IMG/VR virus record: IMGVR_UViG_3300033993_002218
Span: 1 to 64,000 of that record
Direction: 5' to 3' (one strand)
Length of the DNA: 64,000 nt
Origin: a virus
Taxonomy: Duplodnaviria; Heunggongvirae; Uroviricota; Caudoviricetes
Within the stretch, counting starts at the first letter, position 1, and each line of letters starts with the position of its first letter. This document shows, in pieces, positions 13,700-60,606 of this stretch. The notes below the pieces were generated by a model. The model was not told where the DNA came from. It did no database searches and was given only the letters and a program-made list of their open reading frames with translations. Both the position numbers and the translations under genes were made by a program.

Positions 13700-14431
13700 T
13701 TACTTTTTCAGAGTGGGCATCAGACGCAGACCATCACGGAAGATGGCATTTTTCATTTTACGCCTCACATCACTGAGGGTCTCCATAGTAGCAACGGTAT
13801 TTGCAAGAAACATTTTTTCAAGTTCCTCACGGATACGTTCAACCGAAACCTTGTTCAGCATTTCAGCAGCAAAATCGCTATTGACTGCATCCCAAGTTTG
13901 TCCTTCAATATTAAACCCTTTGGTAATGTGAAACCGCAGTGCCCTCATAACCCTCAGACCATCTTCTGCAATTCGGTCAGTAGGATTACCCACAAACCGA
14001 AGAAGATTATTCTCAAGGTCTTCACGACCACCGAAAGGATCCACCAGTTCCCCATCCAGAATTGCCATCGCATTCACGGTAAAATCCCGTCGTTGCAGGT
14101 CATCCATCAGGGTTCCGGGAAGAACAAAATCAGGACGACGACCATCACTACTCGGACCATCTTTCCGTGCCAGAACAAAGTCAGCAACAGTAGTTCTTTT
14201 CCTCACAGGATGCCACGTTGGAACTTGTGCCCGAACAGTGAAGAACTCAGGAGTTTCTAGAAAAACCTCAAATCCATCAACTTTCAAAACATTCACTAAG
14301 GTAGCAAATGCCTCATCGGCATTTGCGAACATCTTTGGATTTATCGGGATTGCAACGAAATCAACATCCTTGGAATCTACACCAAGAAACTTGTCTCGGA
14401 CTGCACCACCGACTTCTGCGAATTGGAACAT
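13700..14431 (-). CDS. tRNA nucleotidyltransferase (CCA-adding) / poly(A) polymerase family, head-neck only (243 aa)
   Basis: N-terminal VGGAVRD...D.D and RRDFTVNAMA motifs match class II CCA-adding enzymes. Confidence 0.8.
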   Translation of the reverse strand: MFQFAEVGGAVRDKFLGVDSKDVDFVAIPINPKMFANADEAFATLVNVLKVDGFEVFLETPEFFTVRAQVPTWHPVRKRTTVADFVLARKDGPSSDGRRPDFVLPGTLMDDLQRRDFTVNAMAILDGELVDPFGGREDLENNLLRFVGNPTDRIAEDGLRVMRALRFHITKGFNIEGQTWDAVNSDFAAEMLNKVSVERIREELEKMFLANTVATMETLSDVRRKMKNAIFRDGLRLMPTLKK

Positions 14432-21939: not shown

Positions 21940-22095
21940 TTTAAAATAAGATCTTAGATGCTTATAAACTTTTATGGATTCATGATAAAGTTCAACATCA
22001 TCTTCTTCATAATCTTCCTCTGAACTATAATCATAAAATTCTCTAATAGTATACATTAGTAAATCAAGTTGTTGCCGAATTTCAAGATTAGTCAT
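21940..22095 (-). CDS. hypothetical small acidic protein (about 51 aa)
   Basis: Hand-translated MTNLEIRQQLDLLMYTIREFYDYSSEEDYEEDDVELYHESIKVYKASKILF. ATGA overlap upstream. Confidence 0.3.
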
Positions 22096-22253
22096 ACATA
22101 CATCCTATTATCAAGATAATCAATTAATGTAACATTGGGATCTACATTATCTGGCACATATTCATAGAAAAAATATTCCATTGCAGCATATGCTTGATCC
22201 GAAGAATCTTCATGCAAAAGAAACATAATTTGACGAAAAGTGAATTCATTCAT
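22092..22253 (-). CDS. hypothetical protein (53 aa, trimmed start MNEFT)
   Basis: ORF track, trimmed. Confidence 0.4.
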   Translation of the reverse strand: MNEFTFRQIMFLLHEDSSDQAYAAMEYFFYEYVPDNVDPNVTLIDYLDNRMYV

Positions 22254-22621
22254 CAGCAAGCAAAAGTAAGTCCTCCAAGTGATGCACCCAATGCAGTTGC
22301 CCAACCATAATTTCGTGGATAATTCATGGCAGCAGCACGACCAATTGCACCACCAAGTACGGCACCCAATACAGTTCTTGTAGGATTACAGTTTGGATTA
22401 GTTGCCTTACCACCATTACTATAGTACTGATTTGCACCATTGCAAGGAACATTGTAAGTTTGAACACTTACACCGCCAGGTACATAATTACCATAACGAT
22501 CATATCCACCGGGTCGATAGACTTCTTGATTCTGAGTGCAGACTGCAAAGTTATTCACTTGTTGTGCCATCACGGGAATCGGAGCAAACAGAAGTGCGGA
22601 AAGAAGGAAAAGTTTTTTCAT
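22253..22621 (-). CDS. secreted glycine-zipper protein (122 aa). Signal peptide then a GxxxG-rich C-terminus.
   Basis: MKKLFLLSALLFAPIPVMA signal peptide. GAVLGGAIGRAAA...ALGASLGG glycine zipper, like the 17 kDa antigen / Gly-zipper OMP family. Confidence 0.6.
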   Translation of the reverse strand: MKKLFLLSALLFAPIPVMAQQVNNFAVCTQNQEVYRPGGYDRYGNYVPGGVSVQTYNVPCNGANQYYSNGGKATNPNCNPTRTVLGAVLGGAIGRAAAMNYPRNYGWATALGASLGGLTFAC

Positions 22622-22698
22622 TATTCTTTGCGTATGAGAGTATTATAAGGCAAGAAAGGGCACCCCGAAGGATGCCCTGTGCCAGTTGTCAAAGTGTC
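22622..22698 (-). promoter_or_regulatory. intergenic cassette (type A) with a textbook terminator hairpin
   Basis: Minus strand: ACACTTTGACAACTGGCACA box, hairpin GGGCATCC-TTCG-GGGTGCCC, TTTCTT run, then TTATAAT. Confidence 0.6.
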
Positions 22699-22699
22699 A

Positions 22700-23518
22700 T
22701 CACTTACCAGTCAGACCACCAGGCAGGAAATCCATCTTAGCACCGTTGATAATCACCATCTTTTGGATGCTACCATTCTCAAATGCTGCTTTGAGGATTT
22801 CGTTACGTTGATACTCCAGAGATTGAGTCGTCACAGTAGAAGCAAGTGCCTTATTCTCTTCTGCTTTCAGTTGAGCAGTGCGAGTTTTCACCTCTTGCTC
22901 TTTATTTGCCGATTGGGCAGCAACCACACGGTTCACAGAGGCAACCAGTGCGTCAGGCAGGTCTGCTTTCACAACCACAACGGATTCAATATCAATCTTA
23001 CCGGCAAGGTTGTTCTTCTCCAGAGACAGATTCAGATTCTGTTTGATAGTTTCTTGAATCTTATCCAGACTGCTGTTCACTTCCAGAGCAGGATATTCAT
23101 CAACCGATTGGTTCACGGCAGAAGTAATCAGACGTTTGATGAAACTTGCCATCAGTTCAATCTGACCATTCTCACTGACACCGTGATTGGTAATATCATA
23201 ACCAGTGTAGAAATTATACAGACTGGTGGGAGACAGACTATAAGTAACCACAACATCCATATCTTTCATAATGGTGTTGTCTTTGGTCTTGGGAGTCAGA
23301 TCACTGGATTGTACTGTGATCTTACGAGTGTTGAATACCTTAATAGAACCAAAACCATCGTATTTGATACCAGGAGTGAGAACTTCATTCTTCACCTGAC
23401 CATCAAATCCAATATAGAGACCATTTTCACCAGTGTTAATCGTAGTGAATTGACCAGCAGTGAGAATCAGTGCCAGAAAAACACCGCCAACACCAATAGC
23501 AATTTTTCCAGTAGACAT
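22700..23518 (-). CDS. SPFH / band-7 (prohibitin-stomatin-HflKC family) membrane protein (272 aa)
   Basis: N-terminal transmembrane helix followed by an SPFH-like core and a long Ala/Lys/Glu coiled-coil tail. Confidence 0.8.
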   Translation of the reverse strand: MSTGKIAIGVGGVFLALILTAGQFTTINTGENGLYIGFDGQVKNEVLTPGIKYDGFGSIKVFNTRKITVQSSDLTPKTKDNTIMKDMDVVVTYSLSPTSLYNFYTGYDITNHGVSENGQIELMASFIKRLITSAVNQSVDEYPALEVNSSLDKIQETIKQNLNLSLEKNNLAGKIDIESVVVVKADLPDALVASVNRVVAAQSANKEQEVKTRTAQLKAEENKALASTVTTQSLEYQRNEILKAAFENGSIQKMVIINGAKMDFLPGGLTGK

Positions 23519-23545: not shown

Positions 23546-23707
23546 TTAGTCAGAAGTGAGACCAGCATAGATAAATGCTGCTCCCAGAATAAGAATCAGA
23601 ACAAGAGGTAGCATCTTGATAAAGAACAAGACAGGAATACCTCTTGCAAGAAGCACAAGGAGAATCAGAAGTATTCCGATTCCTGTGCCAAGAATGCGTC
23701 CAATCAT
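23546..23707 (-). CDS. small two-helix membrane protein (about 53 aa). Possible NfeD-like partner of the SPFH protein.
   Basis: Hand-translated MIGRILGTGIGILLILLVLLARGIPVLFFIKMLPLVLILILGAAFIYAGLTSD. It sits immediately upstream of the SPFH gene on the same strand. Confidence 0.4.
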   Translation of the reverse strand: MIGRILGTGIGILLILLVLLARGIPVLFFIKMLPLVLILILGAAFIYAGLTSD

Positions 23708-23710
23708 ACC

Positions 23711-23932
23711 TTAAATTTCCTCAGGTTCCCAAACAGCATTTTCAATATACTGTTTTGATGTGGAGTCACTGTTGAGAGGATGGTCATCTTCAAACTCTCC
23801 AATTTCAGTAGATTGTACAGATACAATTGTAGTGAGAATTCTATCTTGGTTTTGCAAACCATAGAGGATGTAATCAAGTTTATCAAGATAATCTAAGTCA
23901 ACACAAACAATTTCAACTTTGTATGCTTTCAT
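23711..23932 (-). CDS. hypothetical protein (73 aa)
   Basis: ORF track. Confidence 0.45.
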   Translation of the reverse strand: MKAYKVEIVCVDLDYLDKLDYILYGLQNQDRILTTIVSVQSTEIGEFEDDHPLNSDSTSKQYIENAVWEPEEI

Positions 23933-23944
23933 AATGTTAAATTC

Positions 23945-24364
23945 TCAAGGAACAATCCAATCGTAACCATCAGGTTGTTTAACACTCTCAGAACCATCAT
24001 ATTCATCAATACGATAGGCACCAGAGACCTCAGCAATAGCAAGTTTAGCATAATCACCGTCTGCTTCCTCACCAAGTTCTTCTACAACTTGAACAAGAAT
24101 GGGGTCGTGTCGGTCAACATTATGGTCATACCAAGTTTGTTCGGAAAGCTTTTTATTGTAAGCAAGACGTTCAGTAAGAGACATAGAAGACCATTCCTTC
24201 TTTTCAAGACGTTCTTCAGGTGGAACCAACCAAATGGTGAAGATACCCATAAAGTCACCATTTTCAATCCAAACTTCTTTGCCTTGAAGTTCCCAGTAAC
24301 GCTTACATGCTTCACGGGAAAGACCGAATCCACCGTAGCAGGCATTATATACTACTTTAGTCAT
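23945..24364 (-). CDS. hypothetical protein (139 aa)
   Basis: ORF track. Confidence 0.55.
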   Translation of the reverse strand: MTKVVYNACYGGFGLSREACKRYWELQGKEVWIENGDFMGIFTIWLVPPEERLEKKEWSSMSLTERLAYNKKLSEQTWYDHNVDRHDPILVQVVEELGEEADGDYAKLAIAEVSGAYRIDEYDGSESVKQPDGYDWIVP

Positions 24365-24624
24365 TTGAATGCTCCAGCAATAATAGCAATGACAATAGCG
24401 ATAGTAAGAATTACGACCGCAAGTAAAAGACTAATCCAAATGGGAGACAATACCCACCACCAAGACCAAGTAATAACATTAGTCAGTTTGAGACCAATGA
24501 ACAGAACAGTCAGAGCACCAGTGAAACTGATACCACCAGAAGATGAAGAAGATGAAGATGACATAGTTTTGGAACGTGATTGTTTGATTGCGTTTTGTTC
24601 AATGAGATCAAGAAGTTTGCTCAT
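24361..24624 (-). CDS. membrane protein (87 aa). Ser-run followed by two transmembrane helices.
   Basis: SSSSSSSSGG then hydrophobic ALTVLFIGL... and SLLLAVVILTIAIVIAIIAGAF. Confidence 0.55.
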   Translation of the reverse strand: MSKLLDLIEQNAIKQSRSKTMSSSSSSSSGGISFTGALTVLFIGLKLTNVITWSWWWVLSPIWISLLLAVVILTIAIVIAIIAGAFK

Positions 24625-24636
24625 TTCTTATGATAA

Positions 24637-24831
24637 TCAGTTATAAGTGCAGAGTTGAGTCATACGACCGTATTGAATGCCTTCAGACCATTTACCACCA
24701 GCATTCATACAGGATTGTTTGTTTGGAATAACAGAGTTGCCTGTGACAACACCTACACCAATAGCAAGTAGAATGCCACCAATGGCAACGGCAATCATCA
24801 GTTCAACAAGAGTAAATCCTTTGGAGTTCAT
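24637..24831 (-). CDS. type IV pilin / pseudopilin-like small protein (64 aa)
   Basis: MNSKGFTLVELMIAVAIGGILLAIG is a canonical prepilin class III signal: G-FTLxE at the cleavage site, then a hydrophobic helix with a conserved E. Confidence 0.6.
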   Translation of the reverse strand: MNSKGFTLVELMIAVAIGGILLAIGVGVVTGNSVIPNKQSCMNAGGKWSEGIQYGRMTQLCTYN

Positions 24832-24912
24832 TGGGTTTCGTTGATTACTTGTTTATTATAAGGCATCAAAGGGCACCTGTGAAGTGCCCCTGTGCCAGTT
24901 AGTCAGGTGTCC
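24832..24912 (-). promoter_or_regulatory. intergenic cassette (type A) with a perfect hairpin
   Basis: ttattataaggcatcaaagggcacctgtgaagtgcccctgtgccagttagtcaggtgtcc. Hairpin GGGCAC-CTGTGAA-GTGCCC. Confidence 0.55.
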
Positions 24913-26268: not shown

Positions 26269-26481
26269 TCAATCATCATAAATTCGACACTCAAGTGCAT
26301 CAGGATGTGCATCGCAATACAGTTCTAATGCAGTTGGATCATGATCATCATTTGGATGATGTTCTTTATATGTTATGAGTGCTTCCAATTCTTCTTCAGT
26401 GTGTCTTCTTGCCTGAGGAGAAGTCATAGGATCATTCAGAATATCTTCATCCTTCTGAATGTGCTGATTAATGTTTTTCAT
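26269..26481 (-). CDS. hypothetical acidic His-rich protein (70 aa)
   Basis: ORF track. Confidence 0.45.
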   Translation of the reverse strand: MKNINQHIQKDEDILNDPMTSPQARRHTEEELEALITYKEHHPNDDHDPTALELYCDAHPDALECRIYDD

Positions 26482-27976: not shown

Positions 27977-28513
27977 TCATTCCCCCTTATGATTTTTGTC
28001 AAATGGTGCCTTAAAGTAATGATTCGCAGCAGAATGGAAAATCATCACACCTTCTGGATTCATAAAACCAGGAGAAGCAAGAGAACCATTATTTGAAAGA
28101 AAGTTCATTGCATCGTTAATTTCATTAGTATCAAACTCTCCAGCATAAAGAGTAGGAACAACATAGCAACATGCAGGAATGTTTTCCGCATTCCAGATAT
28201 TCACATTAAACAGGGAGAATCTTTTCTCACCTTTTGGAAGATTATAACCTCGTTGAATACCACTTCCCCACCATTCTCCATGATGACGACCAGCACCAAG
28301 TTTCATCAGTTCATCTTGATTTTCAGATGCCCAACGATGAAATCCAAAGTTGTCGGATTCTGCACTCAACCACCGATTACGACTTCCGACAAACATATCC
28401 CCATCATCAGTAATGTAGATAAGTCCATTTGTGCCATCAATTTTTTCAGTTACCACACATTCCTTATGAAGACGGGGAATCTTAGGAAAAAGAATAAATT
28501 CAGGATAGTTCAT
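27977..28513 (-). CDS. putative RNA ligase-family nucleotidyltransferase (Rnl2-like motif I), 178 aa
   Basis: TEKIDGTNGLIYI matches the covalent-lysine motif I (EKIHGTN in T4 Rnl2). EGVMIF is a possible motif IV. It is shorter than a canonical Rnl2. Confidence 0.5.
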   Translation of the reverse strand: MNYPEFILFPKIPRLHKECVVTEKIDGTNGLIYITDDGDMFVGSRNRWLSAESDNFGFHRWASENQDELMKLGAGRHHGEWWGSGIQRGYNLPKGEKRFSLFNVNIWNAENIPACCYVVPTLYAGEFDTNEINDAMNFLSNNGSLASPGFMNPEGVMIFHSAANHYFKAPFDKNHKGE

Positions 28514-36690: not shown

Positions 36691-38064
36691 TCAGACAATT
36701 ACAGAAGCATTGTATCGGACTTCATCAAAGGTATACTCTTTGACGATTTCACCATTCTCAAACACAGTCTCAAGAACTTCTTCAGCATCAGTCCTACCTT
36801 CCAAGTCAGTGAAATAACCTTCATCATTACGATAGAGTGTTACACGACCTTTCTTGGATTCTTTACCCATATCGGTAATTGGACTCTTATACACATCTCT
36901 CTGTTCTCCTTTAACTTCAATTGAAGAACACTTCATTGCAAACTTCTGAGTATCACGGTCAATACTTTGAAGAAGTTTACCACCTTGACCGAAGGCAATG
37001 TTGTCTGCAGAATATCCAGCAGTCATTGCTCTATAAAGAATTCGGTCAATCGTATCTTGAGTGATACCATCACCTTGAATAATACGGACGTGATTAAGAA
37101 CTTTGAATCCTTTATCATTTACCGTGTGTCCATAGTGACTATCAAGAATCTTAAGGCACTCAGTTACAACTTCTGGAGGATAACCACTATCAGGACGAAC
37201 CACAAGAGTTGCACCAGAGTTGATTACATCATCCTTGAGAACAGTGCCCCACATATGGCAGGCATCGTAAATGTTATAACTATCACTTACGCAAGCAAAG
37301 AGACTGTTAGGTTTGCCGTAGATTTTTACCATATTACGGTAAGAATCTTCTTCACCCTTTCTACCCCAAGAAGTCACGGTGCTGTGTTCCATAGCAGGAA
37401 TAGAGAATCCTGCAATATCAATGTTGTAGTATTCTTTACCATAAAGCAAAGCACTTACCGTATCAGTTCCCTGAAAGTTTACAAGGTGTGCGAGACCACC
37501 AATACCAGCAGACTCGAAGGAAGATACACCACGAGCACCGAAATCGTGAAGTTTGAACTCAATCGTTCTGGGATCTCCAGTTTTCATCAAGTAATCGTGA
37601 ATGATTCTCTTACTTTCGTAGGAGTTGGTAGCAACAGTAGTTCCGTACCAAATACTCCTGAGAAGTGCAGTCTCAATATAACTTGTCAACCAAGCACATT
37701 GAGGGTCAGTATTTTCAACAGTAGCAAGAACATTCTTCACAGGAATTACAGAACCTTCAGGAACTGCTTTGATGCGAATAGGCAACTTACCACCATATTC
37801 ACGAAGAATATATTCCCAACCTTCACGATTGAAAGGTTCTCCGTGTCCCCCAGCAATTAGTTCAGCAAAATCAATATCTTCCTGAGTAATAGGATTAGAA
37901 AGATACTCCTTTAGAAAGATTTGAAGACCGAAGAAAACAGTTTGTTTCCAACTACCTCCACGACTTTCAACATAGGAATATACGTTCGTAGTCCCTTCGG
38001 GATACTGATTGTATTGCGAAAACTTGTAAGAATCTGTGTTTGTGATAATCGTTTTGTTAATCAT
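36691..38064 (-). CDS. nadV: nicotinamide phosphoribosyltransferase (NAMPT/NadV), 457 aa
   Basis: The N-terminus ...TDSYKFSQYNQYPEGTTNVYSYVESRGG and overall length match the NAMPT family. Shine-Dalgarno TTAAGGAGTTTAAA-ATG. Confidence 0.9.
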   Translation of the reverse strand: MINKTIITNTDSYKFSQYNQYPEGTTNVYSYVESRGGSWKQTVFFGLQIFLKEYLSNPITQEDIDFAELIAGGHGEPFNREGWEYILREYGGKLPIRIKAVPEGSVIPVKNVLATVENTDPQCAWLTSYIETALLRSIWYGTTVATNSYESKRIIHDYLMKTGDPRTIEFKLHDFGARGVSSFESAGIGGLAHLVNFQGTDTVSALLYGKEYYNIDIAGFSIPAMEHSTVTSWGRKGEEDSYRNMVKIYGKPNSLFACVSDSYNIYDACHMWGTVLKDDVINSGATLVVRPDSGYPPEVVTECLKILDSHYGHTVNDKGFKVLNHVRIIQGDGITQDTIDRILYRAMTAGYSADNIAFGQGGKLLQSIDRDTQKFAMKCSSIEVKGEQRDVYKSPITDMGKESKKGRVTLYRNDEGYFTDLEGRTDAEEVLETVFENGEIVKEYTFDEVRYNASVIV

Positions 38065-39088: not shown

Positions 39089-40108
39089 TTATACTCCGGT
39101 AAAATAGTTGATGATTTCGTAATGGTCTTCGTAGCACTCACTTGGATTGATTTTGGAAATTGGAATCCATTTTGCAGATGTAGCATCACTTCCACCTTTG
39201 ACTTTTGGAAGTTCTCCGTTAGGAAGTTTGATGTGAAATGCATGAGTGATTGTCCTACCTCTGGTGCTTCGTTCAATCGCATCAAAGACTTTTGCTTCTG
39301 CTATATTACCACGAAGAACTGGAGCAGGCACCTTGAGTTGAGTTTCCTCCCTCACTTCCCGTATCATAGCATCCTCTAGGGACTTGTCGCTTAAAGCGTC
39401 TAGGAACCCTCCAGGAAGGGCAAGGAGACCCTTTCCAGGTTCTGCCCGACGACGAATCATCAGAATGTGCCCACACTGCACTACGACGGCATCCACCGTC
39501 ACGAAGGTTGGGGGATATGGGAAAGAAGCATACTGAGACTTATATTTTTCAACAAAATCAATCTCTCGGAGAATTTGGTCGTAATCCTCTGTCTTAGAAA
39601 ACTTATTGAGAAACTCCAGAACTTCTACTGGAATGACACTCTTAATAAAGTTTGGGTTGTAGTCCTCTTTGAAGTAGAGTTTTCGGATTTGAGATGCACT
39701 CAGTTCTTCAATCAAAGGGACTTCAATTAGGTCCCACTGAGGGAACATATCAAGATAGAAAGAAGTCTCATCTTTCTTGTATCCAATAATTCCAACTTTA
39801 ATGTCTTCAAAGGGATTGATTTTATTCACAATACTTTGAACTCTAGATACCCAAGCATCATTGTTGTAGATGGTATCTTGAATTGGATGAATGCTATAAC
39901 TAGCATTTACCATCATTAAAGTTTCGTTGATTAAATATTCCCGTTCATCATAAGAGAATGGGTTCTTAAAAGTTCTGGGTTGATTTGCAGACCCCACAAT
40001 AATCGCAGTGTGTTCTGCAAGTTCTGTTGCCCGTTTGATAATCTCTAGGTGAGCATTATGGAACGGTTGAAACCGACCAATAAAAACAATTACATCATAT
40101 TTTTTCAT
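39089..40108 (-). CDS. natV: bifunctional NMN adenylyltransferase / Nudix ADP-ribose pyrophosphatase (NatV/NadM-Nudix type), about 339 aa
   Basis: FIGRFQPFHNAHLEI is the (H/T)xGH nucleotidyltransferase motif. GGFLDALSDKSLEDAMIREVREETQL is a Nudix box. The start is trimmed to MKKYD behind TAAGGAGTTTAGAATT-ATG. Confidence 0.85.
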   Translation of the reverse strand: MKKYDVIVFIGRFQPFHNAHLEIIKRATELAEHTAIIVGSANQPRTFKNPFSYDEREYLINETLMMVNASYSIHPIQDTIYNNDAWVSRVQSIVNKINPFEDIKVGIIGYKKDETSFYLDMFPQWDLIEVPLIEELSASQIRKLYFKEDYNPNFIKSVIPVEVLEFLNKFSKTEDYDQILREIDFVEKYKSQYASFPYPPTFVTVDAVVVQCGHILMIRRRAEPGKGLLALPGGFLDALSDKSLEDAMIREVREETQLKVPAPVLRGNIAEAKVFDAIERSTRGRTITHAFHIKLPNGELPKVKGGSDATSAKWIPISKINPSECYEDHYEIINYFTGV

Positions 40109-40225
40109 AATTCTAAACTCCTTAGAATGTTGTGTTGTTAGAACGTCTATCGTTCTAATGTATGTATTATAATGGAAAAGGGGGGCACCTGTAAAGTGCC
40201 CTTGTGCCAGTTGTTCAAGTGTCCT
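40109..40225 (-). promoter_or_regulatory. intergenic cassette (type A) upstream of natV
   Basis: attataatggaaaaggggggcacctgtaaagtgcccttgtgccagttgttcaagtgtcc. -10 at 40166-71. Confidence 0.55.
40138..40158 (-). promoter_or_regulatory. perfect 8 bp inverted repeat (TTAGAACG-tctat-CGTTCTAA) in the natV leader, between the -10 and the Shine-Dalgarno
   Basis: Seen directly. Candidate operator or leader hairpin. Confidence 0.4.
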
Positions 40226-40290
40226 CAAATAAGTGCTTTGTTTTTTCTTTGAGTTCTTTTATAAGGTCATCCCTGATAATTTCTTGTGGT

Positions 40291-59355: not shown

Positions 59356-60606
59356 TCACTTGTTAATTGTAGAAATTACAGGTTGCCCCTGAACAAATGC
59401 CATATCAGCAACAGATTGCAGTCGTCGTGCGGTTGCAATCCCAGTATTAGCATACACCGGAACATGAATAAAACCATAGGATTTCACATAATCTTCGGTT
59501 TTACCAGGAGTCAGAGACCCCTCTGAGAGACGCCTAGAATCCTCTGGATGAAGGCGCACCACACGCCCAATGGTTTGCACCATAGAAGTATAGTCCATGT
59601 TCCTCATGAGGATGCAGGAGGTCAATCCTGGGCAATCAATACCCTCAGAAAGAATGGAGTAGTGAAGAAGAACAAACTTCTTGGTAGAATCTGCACCGTA
59701 TTCCTTGAGAGTTTCAAAGAATACATCACGCTTGACTTTTTGATTGTTAATGAATGCACCATGCTTAGCAGTAATCCACAGAATCTCATAACCATGAGAC
59801 TGAATCTCAGTCATAAAATCAGTTTCGGCAAGCATACGAATCATTACCTTAGTATTCGGTGCTGCAACCAGAACCTTTTCCATGTTCTCTTCATTCAGAA
59901 TAGTATCCAGAAGAGTCATGCAATCATGTTCTGCACCAAATTCTTTATTACGAACAACATTCCTTTCCTGAGTATTGATTTGTGGAGGAACAATGAATCC
60001 CTCCTTAACCATATCAGAAGCAGAAATATTCGTAATCATTTGACCATACACATGACTCCAGTTCATACCAGGTTTGTTGTAAACATTAGAATACTTTGGA
60101 GTTGCAGTATAAGAATAGAATCGCTTGGACTTCTGAGACAATTGCTCCACATAAGGAAAGAAATCCTTACGAACGGAATTATGTGCCTCATCCATATGAA
60201 CGGTATCAATTTCAATACCAGACTCAATCAGACGATGAAGAGAATGATACGTTGTAAAGATCAGTTTATGACCTTCAACATTCTCATGCCATTCACGAAT
60301 CATCTTAGGACTGGTAGTGCAGAAATGATCAGTATCACCAGAATGCACATGAAGAATGTGAGCATTATTAATGTACTTGATGTAATCCGAACACAACTGA
60401 GAAGTCAACAGGATTCGTGGAGAAATCACAACAACAGTTTGATGCTGAGACTTCTTATACTCACGAATAGTATCTCCGATACCAATCAGAGTCTTACCTG
60501 CACCAGTCACGGCACAGACAACACCTCTGGAATATTTGGAGAGCATGTCAAGAGCACTTTGCTGATGAGGACGAAACTGAATCATGGGGTGATTGGTTGA
60601 CTTCAC
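59356..60606 (-). CDS. SF2 DEAH-box helicase (416 aa)
   Basis: Walker A CAVTGAGKTLIGI. DEAH box HMDEAHN. Motif III TATP. C-terminal helicase fold with TIGRVVR (motif VI-like). Confidence 0.8.
   Translation of the reverse strand: MKSTNHPMIQFRPHQQSALDMLSKYSRGVVCAVTGAGKTLIGIGDTIREYKKSQHQTVVVISPRILLTSQLCSDYIKYINNAHILHVHSGDTDHFCTTSPKMIREWHENVEGHKLIFTTYHSLHRLIESGIEIDTVHMDEAHNSVRKDFFPYVEQLSQKSKRFYSYTATPKYSNVYNKPGMNWSHVYGQMITNISASDMVKEGFIVPPQINTQERNVVRNKEFGAEHDCMTLLDTILNEENMEKVLVAAPNTKVMIRMLAETDFMTEIQSHGYEILWITAKHGAFINNQKVKRDVFFETLKEYGADSTKKFVLLHYSILSEGIDCPGLTSCILMRNMDYTSMVQTIGRVVRLHPEDSRRLSEGSLTPGKTEDYVKSYGFIHVPVYANTGIATARRLQSVADMAFVQGQPVISTINK

Follow-up and report, generated by a model that had tools for sequence, protein, structure and literature searches.

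A conserved minimal prepilin-like protein of a T4-like freshwater cyanomyovirus and its possible role in interference with host type IV pili

Introduction

Type IV pili (T4P) are important for the suspension of picocyanobacteria in the water, for DNA uptake and motility and for the rate at which cells encounter cyanophages. In Synechococcus, T4P raise the cyanophage encounter and pilus retraction brings the phage to the cell (bioRxiv 10.1101/2025.09.20.677514). The Synechococcus pilin PilA carries the motif GFTLxE and is cleaved by PilD. Its pili prevent sinking of the cells, and pili are encoded by only about a quarter of the marine picocyanobacteria (PMC7994388).

Pilus components encoded by viruses have been described in a few cases. 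The protein P-FimU of F10-like prophages is incorporated into the pili of P. aeruginosa and blocks pilus-dependent phages (PMC12952977). It is homologous to a minor pilin of the host and of full size, is expressed from the prophage, uses the host T4P machine and protects against other phages, and the pili stay functional. The P-FimU proteins are highly diverse in sequence (PMC12952977). In addition, truncated PilA genes of about 60 residues were noted bioinformatically in virulent Pseudomonas phages (Sztanko et al., Cell Rep 2026, PMC12952977). In Archaea, the haloarchaeal provirus SNJ2 encodes the pilins PilA1 and PilA2, which take over the machinery used by the host for the secretion of its pili (PMC12426801).

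Here, a small prepilin-like gene was analyzed in a 64-kb stretch of viral DNA, referred to as the window. By its gene content, the window belongs to an uncultured T4-like freshwater cyanomyovirus. A UvsW-type helicase, NAMPT, CP12 and repeated stem-loop cassettes were found, and the nearest isolates are the Synechococcus phages S-SRM01, B3 and B23. T4-like phages are virulent.

Results and Discussion

The mini-prepilin gene and its class III signal

The gene encodes a protein of 64 aa with the translation MNSKGFTLVELMIAVAIGGILLAIGVGVVTGNSVIPNKQSCMNAGGKWSEGIQYGRMTQLCTYN, identical in position and sequence to the ORF of the preliminary description (Table 1).

Table 1. Positions of the mini-prepilin gene, its segments and the surrounding features in the window
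Feature	Position	Strand	Details
Mini-prepilin gene, 64 aa	24637..24831	-	ATG start, stop codon 24637-24639; ORF list, profile matches, purifying selection
Leader peptide MNSKG	24817..24831	-	short and basic, ends in Gly-1; predicted PilD cleavage point before Phe+1
alpha1-N-like hydrophobic helix FTLVELMIAVAIGGILLAIGVGVVT	24742..24816	-	contains Glu+5 and Gly+14; conservation, pilin alignment, AF2
Virus-specific 24-residue head CMNAGGKWSEGIQYGRMTQLCTYN	24640..24711	-	Cys41 and Cys61; invariant residues, pN/pS 0.16
87-aa membrane protein	24361..24624	-	12-nt gap to mini-prepilin gene; phrog_1374, E 1.4e-20
139-aa soluble protein	23945..24364	-	start overlaps stop of 87-aa gene; phrog_16527, E 4.9e-25
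73-aa protein	23711..23932	-	ORF of the six-gene unit; 5 related loci
53-aa membrane protein, Band_7 partner	23546..23707	-	two hydrophobic helices; immediately precedes Band_7 gene
SPFH/Band_7 membrane protein, 272 aa	22700..23518	-	last gene of unit; Pfam Band_7, 71 bits
Predicted sigma70-type promoter TTCACA-17 nt-TATAAT	24855..24883	-	23 nt upstream of ATG; 11/12 positions
GC-rich hairpin, -35 hexamer in loop	24869..24891	-	between upstream gene (stop 24903) and -10 box
Next hairpin/promoter cassette	22642..22700	-	-15.9 kcal/mol hairpin and TATAAT; ends six-gene unit, starts 22253..22621

Two profiles matched the protein above their curated cut-offs, Pfam PF07963 N_methyl with 38.0 bits (cut-off 21.2, E 9.9e-10) and NCBIfam TIGR02532 IV_pilin_GFxxxE with 33.6 bits (cut-off 16.3). 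The preliminary description had proposed a class III (prepilin) signal and had named a search against N_methyl as a check. Judged by these scores, the signal is real and not a chance resemblance. The layout MNSK-G/FTLVE-LMIAVAIGGILLAIGVGVV, in which the slash marks the point where PilD is predicted to cleave off the leader, shows the hallmarks of a type IVa prepilin, i.e. a basic leader, Gly-1, Phe+1, Thr+2, Leu+3, Glu+5, Gly+14 and a hydrophobic stretch of about 22 residues. When the window and 45 related viral loci were searched by regex for G-[FY..]-[TS]-x-x-E together with a hydrophobic stretch, no further ORF of this kind was identified.

In two AF2 models, a helix (residues 8-29), a short helix (38-43) and a beta-hairpin (47-62) were predicted. 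The pLDDT was 73 for the protein and about 90 for residues 11-20, with moderate confidence for the head.

Assignment to pilin classes

The labels minor pilin and pseudopilin, which had been given to the protein before, could not be maintained, since all NCBIfam equivalog models of PilA, PpdD, GspG/H/I/J, ComGC/GE and HpsB scored far below their cut-offs and matched residues 1-34 only. The models of minor pilins and T2SS pseudopilins (FimU/GspH, GspG, GspI, GspJ, ComGC/GE and HpsB) reached 10-18 bits compared to cut-offs of 44-150, and only with the N-terminal motif. For the type IVa major pilin models, 23.5 bits (NF041775, cut-off 400) and 23 bits (PRK10574, cut-off 138) were obtained, restricted to residues 2-27.

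The PDB profile matches to solved pilins (type IVa pilins and Geobacter PilA-N) stop at residue 26-29 and cover the alpha1-N segment only. The long alpha1 of type IVa pilins (about 53 residues) on a four-stranded beta-sheet domain was not seen in the AF2 models. Regarding the Flp/Tad (type IVc) class, no Flp family was present among the Pfam and NCBIfam matches, and the motif GFTLVE is of the type IVa style and not of the form G/xxxxEY.

Distribution and conservation of the family

The homologous family is discrete and comprises at least 133 clusters with a length of 59-85 aa, typically about 64 aa. All members are of metagenomic origin and confined to phage-like contigs, which agrees with the earlier view that the protein is phage-encoded. 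In the assembly collection, 67 indexed blocks contain the exact 64-aa protein. In a word-indexed protein search with the superfamily profile, mostly generic pilins were among the matches listed and few members were added. The scores of this profile are separated by a gap between at least 84 bits and at most 57 bits. Two long matches (P0131 and P0153) were discarded, since the similarity to the head was due only to TPR-like or junk repeats.

No family member could be identified in the genomes of 185,579 species of bacteria and archaea. Only ordinary pilins of 130-250 aa which share the N-terminal motif were detected there, and a recent capture of a host pilin was therefore rejected. Using tblastn with the whole protein and with the head alone, no homologue was found in 50,697 GenBank phage records, including those of the three nearest isolates. 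Relatives of the head were likewise absent from the species genomes, and a structure comparison of the AF2 model yielded no structural match to it.

Gly-1, an aromatic residue at +1 and Glu+5 are all present in 111 of 119 members (93%); Gly-1 or Glu+5 is lost in eight. Among the 105 members matching the strict motif, 100 have a leader with a length of 4-8 residues. G5 (Gly-1) is conserved at 90% or more across the family. Within the helix, T7 and I20 are invariant, followed by L8, E10, L11, I13 and G19 with a conservation of at least 90%.

The head is nearly invariant, with the consensus SCxNAGGKWSEGIQYGRxTQLCTYN. The invariant positions are C41, G45, G46, W48, E50, G51, G55, T58, Q59, C61, T62 and Y63. 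Both Cys are kept in all 119 members. They are 19 residues apart and probably form a periplasmic disulfide. A head of 40 residues with two Cys had been described previously; the two Cys were confirmed, and the length was found to be about 34 residues (31-64).

Over 19 distinct alleles, pN/pS was 0.41 overall, 0.16 in the head and 0.66 in the helix, with a pS of about 0.4-0.47. The gene is thus real and under purifying selection. The pattern of an invariant head and a variable helix is the reverse of that in ordinary pilins.

Gene neighbourhood

The mini-prepilin gene is the first in a unit of six genes, many of which encode membrane proteins. The envelope-directed gene run was located as described before, and the assignments of the SPFH/Band_7 protein, its 53-aa two-helix partner and the 87-aa membrane protein were all confirmed. 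For the protein at 22253..22621, described as a secreted glycine-zipper protein, a Sec-type signal was recognized by eye, whereas the glycine-zipper match is below the threshold (E 0.09). The PADLOC defence models matched none of the genes of the unit.

The 87-aa gene would be co-transcribed with the mini-prepilin gene. In three related loci (L005, L008 and L039), a homologue of it is the direct upstream neighbour of the pilin-like gene. In 21 of the 45 related loci the 139-aa gene follows downstream of the pilin-like gene, often as the very next one. The 53-aa gene was detected at 20 of the 45 loci, almost always about 190 bases upstream of Band_7, and as in the window it is the immediate predecessor of this gene in related loci.

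In some of the related loci a protein of 135 aa is encoded near the pilin-like gene. Its interpretation as a truncated SPFH protein was supported neither by BLASTP against the Band_7 protein of the window nor by Pfam. A weak PDB match to a prohibitin coiled coil (E 0.0018) is the only sign in favour of this interpretation.

Promoter cassette and expression

The predicted promoter upstream of the mini-prepilin gene is the best promoter-like site between positions 22000 and 27000. The -10 block GATGCCyTATAAT occurs in 25 copies in the window compared to 2.8 expected, nearly all of them on the gene strand. For the hairpin/promoter stretch, RNAfold calculated -14.4 kcal/mol. In two related loci (L012 and L036) the stem differs in sequence and the pairing is retained. 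At least 17 similar cassettes could be identified in the window, most of them with a GC-rich hairpin, and the gene order around them is mosaic.

PeSL (promoter-early stem-loop) cassettes have been described in T4-type phages (PMC2839356, PMC4122927). The cassettes of the window, with at least 17 near-identical copies, resemble them in that a stem-loop with a sigma70-type early promoter is repeated between small genes of variable regions. However, the cassette sequence is particular to this phage lineage, and its promoter and terminator roles are predicted. Since the mini-prepilin gene is the first gene behind such a cassette, its expression is expected to be early. As the exact motif is lineage-specific, the expected early expression applies to the lineage of the window.

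Proposed function of the mini-prepilin

With a probability of roughly 40%, the protein is a substrate of the host PilD which docks into the T4P machine, blocks or alters the pili and thereby excludes superinfection. The gene would be transcribed early by the host RNA polymerase and the product inserted into the cytoplasmic membrane with an N-in/C-out orientation. The host PilD, whose substrate PilA in Synechococcus has the same GFTLxE motif, would then cleave after Gly5 and N-methylate the new N-terminus. By means of alpha1-N and Glu+5, the mature protein could dock at the pilus assembly platform like a pilin subunit. Since alpha1-C and a globular pilin domain are missing and the head is conserved and not variable, the protein would most likely poison or cap the pilus as a subunit, or inhibit a conserved periplasmic pilus component through its head. 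The T4P of the infected cell would be shut down or altered, so that further phages and the cell's own progeny are no longer reeled in by pili. Superinfection would be excluded in this way, as it is by early genes of T4. Against this function count the loss of Gly-1 or Glu+5 in eight of 119 members, the same head on other anchors in a few alleles, the nearly constant neighbourhood of SPFH/PHB-like proteins, the negative PADLOC search, a structure model of moderate confidence that resembles no known structure, and the restriction of pili to about a quarter of the marine picocyanobacteria.

That the protein may interfere with T4P and so exclude superinfection had been suggested in the preliminary description, and a published precedent exists in P-FimU (PMC12952977). 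As P-FimU is highly diverse and the head described here is invariant, a conserved binding target appears to fit better than a P-FimU-like receptor replacement. A more specific version of the proposal, that a phage-only superfamily of minimal prepilins delivers, by way of the host's prepilin pathway, a new disulfide-stapled periplasmic inhibitor domain (C-x3-GG-x-W...C) which plugs or caps the T4P of infected cyanobacteria, is regarded as doubtful.

If this were true, large aquatic myoviruses would as a rule turn off the pili of their hosts at an early stage of infection. Bloom-forming and planktonic cyanobacteria would then be affected with regard to superinfection, sinking and DNA uptake. The plug or cap mechanism would be distinct from those of Tip, Zip, PfsE and P-FimU. 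A widespread gene which switches off or rewires pili would add a new function to the ways in which viruses take over their hosts in aquatic systems. Furthermore, the idea of a phage-encoded pilus component, for which the experimental case is so far only the Pseudomonas prophage minor pilin, would extend to lytic cyanophages, and the 59-residue protein would be an easily synthesised probe of how PilD and the assembly platform recognise pilins.

Alternative functions

The far stronger conservation of the head than of the helix would also be expected if the head were a periplasmic effector active on a non-pilus target and the pilin-like N-terminus a signal-anchor only. Candidate targets are an envelope or peptidoglycan component, a phage receptor or DNA-entry route (as with T4 Imm/Sp) or the co-encoded SPFH/PHB-type scaffold. 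In P0110, P0117 and P0124 the same head is placed on another, unrelated TM helix and in P0125 on a lipoprotein, therefore the head may act without the prepilin pathway. In addition, of 33 distinct neighbourhoods, 29 encode Band_7 or the 135-aa PHB-like protein, but never both, no more than 2.7 kb downstream of the pilin-like gene, and small membrane proteins or a lipoprotein flank this gene in most loci, so the function may be unrelated to pili. However, such chimeras occur rarely and may represent alleles in decay (the gene is truncated in L037 and L040), and the linkage to the neighbours may reflect shared ancestry alone. A generic anchor would need neither Gly-1, Phe+1, Thr+2 and Gly+14 nor Glu+5, a charged residue normally disfavoured inside a plain TM helix, yet Gly-1, the aromatic +1 and Glu+5 are kept in 93% of the members. 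An effector on a borrowed anchor is considered rather unlikely.

The complete alpha1-N and the conserved Glu+5 are also consistent with a functional viral pilin, polymerised by the host machinery, either by itself or together with host pilin, into filaments of use to the phage. With such filaments, infected cells might remain suspended in the light, or their adhesion or aggregation might change, comparable to the archaeal provirus SNJ2, whose pilins hijack the host machinery (PMC12426801); Synechococcus is kept from sinking by its pili (PMC7994388). The size is near that of Geobacter PilA-N, the best PDB match, and tight packing in a minimal filament could explain the invariant head. On the other hand, the helix has only about 22 residues, with neither alpha1-C nor a globular domain to hold the subunits together, and residues 9-25, which form the filament core of real pilins, are the variable part in this family. 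The pilin-like gene is single, with no minor pilins or PilA-C-type partner seen alongside it, and a gain in buoyancy has little time to take effect in a lytic infection. This function is judged improbable.

The conserved cleavage motif and the early expression expected from the strong promoter would suit a decoy which floods or blocks the prepilin peptidase PilD, so that host pilins remain unmatured and the signal region is the active part. This is very improbable, since the invariant two-Cys head would be left unexplained, unprocessed pilins elsewhere still insert in the membrane and existing pili would turn over slowly.

The least probable role is that of a holin, antiholin or spanin-like member of the lysis machinery, for which speak the small size among other membrane proteins and the sub-threshold holin-family match of the neighbouring 87-aa protein (E 0.006), but the gene lies behind a sigma70-type early cassette and not a late promoter, no endolysin was found nearby and class III signal features are not known from holins or spanins.

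Comparison with known pilins and virus-encoded pilus components

The mini-prepilin is similar to type IVa pilins (PilA/PilE, Synechococcus PilA1) in the leader, Gly-1/Phe+1, the GFTLxE motif, Gly+14 and the hydrophobic alpha1-N. It differs from them in the absence of alpha1-C, the alpha-beta loop and the four-stranded sheet, and its mature length is about 59 residues compared to 120-160. The two Cys near the C-terminus recall the disulfide loop in the D-region of pilins.

The best match to a solved structure was Geobacter PilA-N (geopilin domain 1; PDB 2m7g, 7tgg, 9egp) with E 9.5e-07. The size is similar (61 residues in the mature geopilin), but the match spans only residues 2-26 of the phage protein, and PilA-N is all-helical and does not have the Cys head. 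Geobacter PilA-N works with a separate PilA-C protein.

The SNJ2 pilins PilA1 and PilA2 are also virus-encoded proteins with a class III signal (PMC12426801). They are archaeal, full-size and host-acquired, belong to a temperate virus and form the dominant surface filaments.

With P-FimU, the protein shares the phage-encoded prepilin signal. In contrast to P-FimU, it has only 59 residues in the mature form, shows no minor-pilin homology and is encoded in a T4-like lytic genome. Its head has no counterpart in the 185,579 species genomes, unlike a full-length homologue of a host pilus component, and the exposed part is nearly invariant (head pN/pS 0.16) and not diverse as in phage-phage competition.

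The six truncated PilA proteins of the virulent Pseudomonas phages were not found by tblastn with the PilA N-terminus and are compared by description. They are similar in the size of about 60 residues, the prepilin leader with an N-terminal helix, the missing globular domain and the occurrence in a non-temperate phage, and for both proteins pilus incorporation or inhibition of assembly has only been proposed. The truncated PilA has been described as the N-terminal 60 residues of the host PilA, whereas the phage protein has a shorter helix and its own invariant two-Cys head. By analogy, the mini-prepilin may be a variant of this recently recognised kind of phage-encoded pilus component.

Origin of the window and the mini-prepilin gene

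The window originates from an uncultured T4-like freshwater cyanomyovirus. Its nucleotide sequence matched only the Synechococcus phages S-SRM01, B3 and B23 (76-79%). The window carries a gene for CP12, an auxiliary metabolic gene typical of cyanophages, which supports a cyanobacterial host. Two further genes, for NAMPT and NMNAT-Nudix, form an NAD+ salvage pair. tRNA genes were not detected in the 64-kb window.

The open reading frame described preliminarily as encoding a phage pilin- or pseudopilin-like protein was recovered with an identical translation. Its proposed class III signal was supported by two independent models above their curated thresholds, namely Pfam N_methyl (38.0 bits, cut-off 21.2, E 9.9e-10) and NCBIfam TIGR02532 (IV_pilin_GFxxxE; 33.6 bits, cut-off 16.3). 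Judged by profile and motif, the protein, here called mini-prepilin, belongs to the prepilin-type N-terminal domain family. The label of minor pilin or pseudopilin was not upheld: the models for major pilins, minor pilins, pseudopilins and Flp proteins all scored far under their cut-offs, matching the shared motif only. As the predicted fold (see below) also lacks the pilin globular domain, the mini-prepilin lies outside these families. Neither the window nor 45 related viral loci contained a second class III ORF when scanned with a regular expression for the motif followed by a hydrophobic run. The gene therefore stands alone as a specific feature and is no common by-product of composition.

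Features of the window discussed in the text
Feature	Position	Strand	Remarks
GP88-family protein	1282-2016	minus	
Poly(A)-polymerase/CCA-adding-type nucleotidyltransferase	13700-14431	minus	
Protein with Sec-type signal	22253..22621		122 aa
Next cassette downstream of mini-prepilin unit	22642..22700		
Band_7 protein	22700..23518	minus	71 bits
53-aa protein	23546..23707	minus	two hydrophobic helices
139-aa soluble protein	23945-24364	minus	phrog_16527
87-aa membrane protein	24361..24624		phrog_1374 match
Mini-prepilin	24637..24831	minus	ATG start, 64 aa
Mini-prepilin promoter	24883..24855		TTCACA-17-TATAAT
Promoter hairpin	24869..24891		GC-rich
CP12 homologue	26269..26481	minus	70 aa; precomputed Pfam PF02672 on identical contig L001
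RNA ligase	27977..28513	minus	PF09414
NAMPT (nicotinamide phosphoribosyltransferase)	36691-38064	minus	NAPRTase + NAMPT_N domains
NMNAT-Nudix	39089-40228	minus	cytidylyltransferase-like/NUDIX (NadR/NMNAT-type)
UvsW-like helicase	59356-60606	minus	ResIII/Helicase_C
Cassettes, last base of -10	57037, 56744, 51104, 48149, 40565, 36633, 34072, 24855, 22642, 20213, 18907, 12464, 11896, 11593, 10327, 9671	minus	weaker copies in addition

Distribution of the family

At least 133 clusters of homologues were retrieved from a set of 5.8 billion proteins, nearly all 61-70 aa long and 63-97% identical across the full length. In the assembly collection, 67 blocks index the exact sequence; the contigs are of freshwater origin, come from JGI and ENA and reach 71 kb. 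A family member is also carried by 40 IMG/VR viral contigs, some of 224-258 kb. Among 185,579 bacterial and archaeal species (one genome each), only ordinary pilins of 130-250 aa with the common N-terminal motif were detected, and tblastn with the whole protein or the C-terminal head alone found no homologue in 50,697 GenBank phage records.

When 1.84 billion representatives were searched exhaustively with a HMMER profile, 14 reached E <= 1e-10, and some of these are more divergent proteins of 62-81 aa. Their plan is unchanged: class III signal, helix and C-x3-GG-x-W...C. All five that were looked up lie on phage-like contigs, which also bear genes for T4 RNA ligase, RlaP, HNH, Band_7, UvrD-type helicase or NAPRTase. 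With a profile of the wider set, members scored at least 84 bits versus at most 57 bits for ordinary pilins. The gene is real, and its family is discrete and phage-only. In JGI pipelines the members carry the generic label 'prepilin-type N-terminal cleavage/methylation domain-containing protein'.

Natural chimeras or truncations were also observed (P0110, P0117, P0124, P0125, L037:8856-8972 and L040:509-634). In some, the invariant head is placed on a different N-terminal TM helix (MKPILAIVGG..., resembling a 105-aa neighbor) or joined to the C-terminus of the neighboring 161-aa lipoprotein; L037 and L040 have lost the class III part by deletion. They look like recombination or deletion products of adjacent genes.

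Conservation and predicted structure

In an alignment of 30 sequences, T7, I20, C41, G45, G46, W48, E50, G51, G55, T58, Q59, C61, T62 and Y63 were invariant, and G5, L8, E10, L11, I13 and G19 were conserved at 90% or more. Of 119 members, every one has both cysteines and 111 retain Gly-1, the aromatic +1 residue and Glu+5; the leader comprises 4-8 residues in 100 of 105 strict-motif members. The conserved helix positions (Phe1, Thr2, Leu3, Glu5, Leu6, Gly14 and Ile15 in mature numbering) are those characteristic of type IVa alpha1-N. Profile alignment to solved pilins covered residues 2-26 only, with Geobacter PilA-N as best match (E 9.5e-07).

In a codon analysis of 19 distinct alleles, pN/pS was lowest in the head (0.16), against 0.49 in the linker and 0.66 in the helix (pS 0.36-0.47). 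Ordinary pilins conserve the core helix and vary in the exposed head, so the pattern of this family is reversed. Two concordant AlphaFold2 runs (mean pLDDT ~73) predicted a helix (8-29), a short helix (38-43) and a beta-hairpin (47-53/56-62), without a pilin globular domain. Fold searches gave no significant match.

Promoter cassettes

Directly upstream of the mini-prepilin gene lies the region's best sigma70-like site (11/12 positions), whose −35 hexamer falls in the loop of the hairpin. The window holds 25 copies of the −10 block GATGCCyTATAAT where 2.8 are expected, and nearly all are on the gene strand. At least 17 copies of a cassette of ~60-75 nt, with conserved leader, hairpin and TATAAT, lie between window genes. 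The order is GACACyTGA..AACTGGCACA, GC-rich hairpin and nGATGCCyTATAAT, often followed by ACTCTCATACACACAAAGGAG and ATG; the stem sequence differs from copy to copy, and the exact motif is confined to this phage lineage. The cassettes fit the published description of PeSLs, composite terminator/promoter cassettes of T4-type phages (PMC2839356, PMC4122927).

Since the next cassette is reached only at the end of the Band_7 gene, the mini-prepilin heads a six-gene unit, followed by the 87-aa membrane protein, the 139-aa protein, a 73-aa protein, the 53-aa two-helix protein and Band_7. Judging from the cassette architecture, this unit would be transcribed early by the host RNA polymerase.

Genomic neighborhood

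All neighbors named in the preliminary description were found where it had placed them. For its secreted glycine-zipper protein, the Sec-type signal was retrieved and the glycine-zipper match stayed below threshold. The region is a mosaic across related contigs. In 29 of 33 distinct neighborhoods, either Band_7 (10/33, usually preceded by the 53-aa partner) or a 135-aa membrane protein (19/33) is encoded within 2.7 kb downstream of the pilin-like gene, never both. The usual flanks are small membrane proteins (62-87 aa) or a 161-aa lipoprotein. As these associations recur, the cluster of membrane-directed genes noted earlier is a property of the locus.

In related phages the 53-aa protein (58-100% identity) is almost always encoded ~190 bases upstream of Band_7 and looks like its obligate partner. 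The pair recalls NfeD/SPFH pairs; homology to NfeD was not detected. The highly conserved, single-TM 135-aa ORF (e.g. L022:10200-10607, L035, L006, L014) takes the place of this pair downstream of the pilin-like gene. It weakly resembles the prohibitin coiled coil (PDB, E 0.0018), a match that neither Pfam nor BLASTP against the Band_7 protein of the window supports. The predicted 161-aa lipoprotein (signal ...LTGC/LVGC; e.g. L010:9519-10004, L007, L014:6100-6585) adjoins the pilin-like gene on one side or the other in 11 of 33 neighborhoods and is absent from the window. The 139-aa soluble protein (phrog_16527), a candidate partner, is encoded downstream in roughly half of the related loci, often directly after the pilin-like gene.

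Proposed function

What has to be explained is a selected cyanomyovirus gene with an early-type promoter, whose product combines a complete prepilin-type N-terminus with a phage-specific, invariant two-Cys head. The mini-prepilin would insert into the membrane, where the host prepilin peptidase PilD would cut after Gly5 and N-methylate the product; Synechococcus PilA has the same GFTLxE motif (PMC7994388). It may then dock at the pilus assembly platform via alpha1-N and Glu+5. Because alpha1-C and the globular domain are absent and the head is conserved rather than diversified, it most likely acts as a poison or capping subunit, or inhibits a conserved periplasmic component of the pilus through its head. 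Pili would be shut down and further phages excluded, a tentative reading with a probability of about 0.4. It agrees with known phage-encoded pilus components and with work in which pili raise cyanophage encounter and retraction brings the phage to the cell (bioRxiv 10.1101/2025.09.20.677514).

Alternatively, the head could be the effector, acting in the periplasm on something other than the pilus, with the N-terminus serving only to anchor it. The SPFH linkage supports this reading, as do the rare natural chimeras in which the head sits on other anchors (P0110, P0117, P0124, P0125); with pilin-specific residues retained in 93% of members, it is unlikely. A functional, filament-forming viral pilin, on the model of the archaeal provirus SNJ2 (PMC12426801), is more doubtful still, since the helix is short and the part that would form the filament core is variable. 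A PilD decoy is very improbable, and a lysis component even slightly more so.

Comparison with known phage-encoded pilus components

Phage-encoded pilus components are a recently recognized kind and the concept itself is not new; literature searches turned up no account of a pilin-like gene in a cyanophage. The mini-prepilin is moderately surprising, directly testable and ecologically relevant. The prophage-encoded P-FimU of P. aeruginosa is built into pili and blocks tip-binding phages (PMC12952977). The mini-prepilin differs from it in size, lack of host homology, phage lifestyle and conservation pattern. Closest in presumed working are the truncated PilA genes (~60 residues) of six virulent Pseudomonas phages, for which incorporation or assembly inhibition has been proposed (PMC12952977). 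The mini-prepilin is set apart by its distinct architecture, phage-only distribution and reversed conservation.
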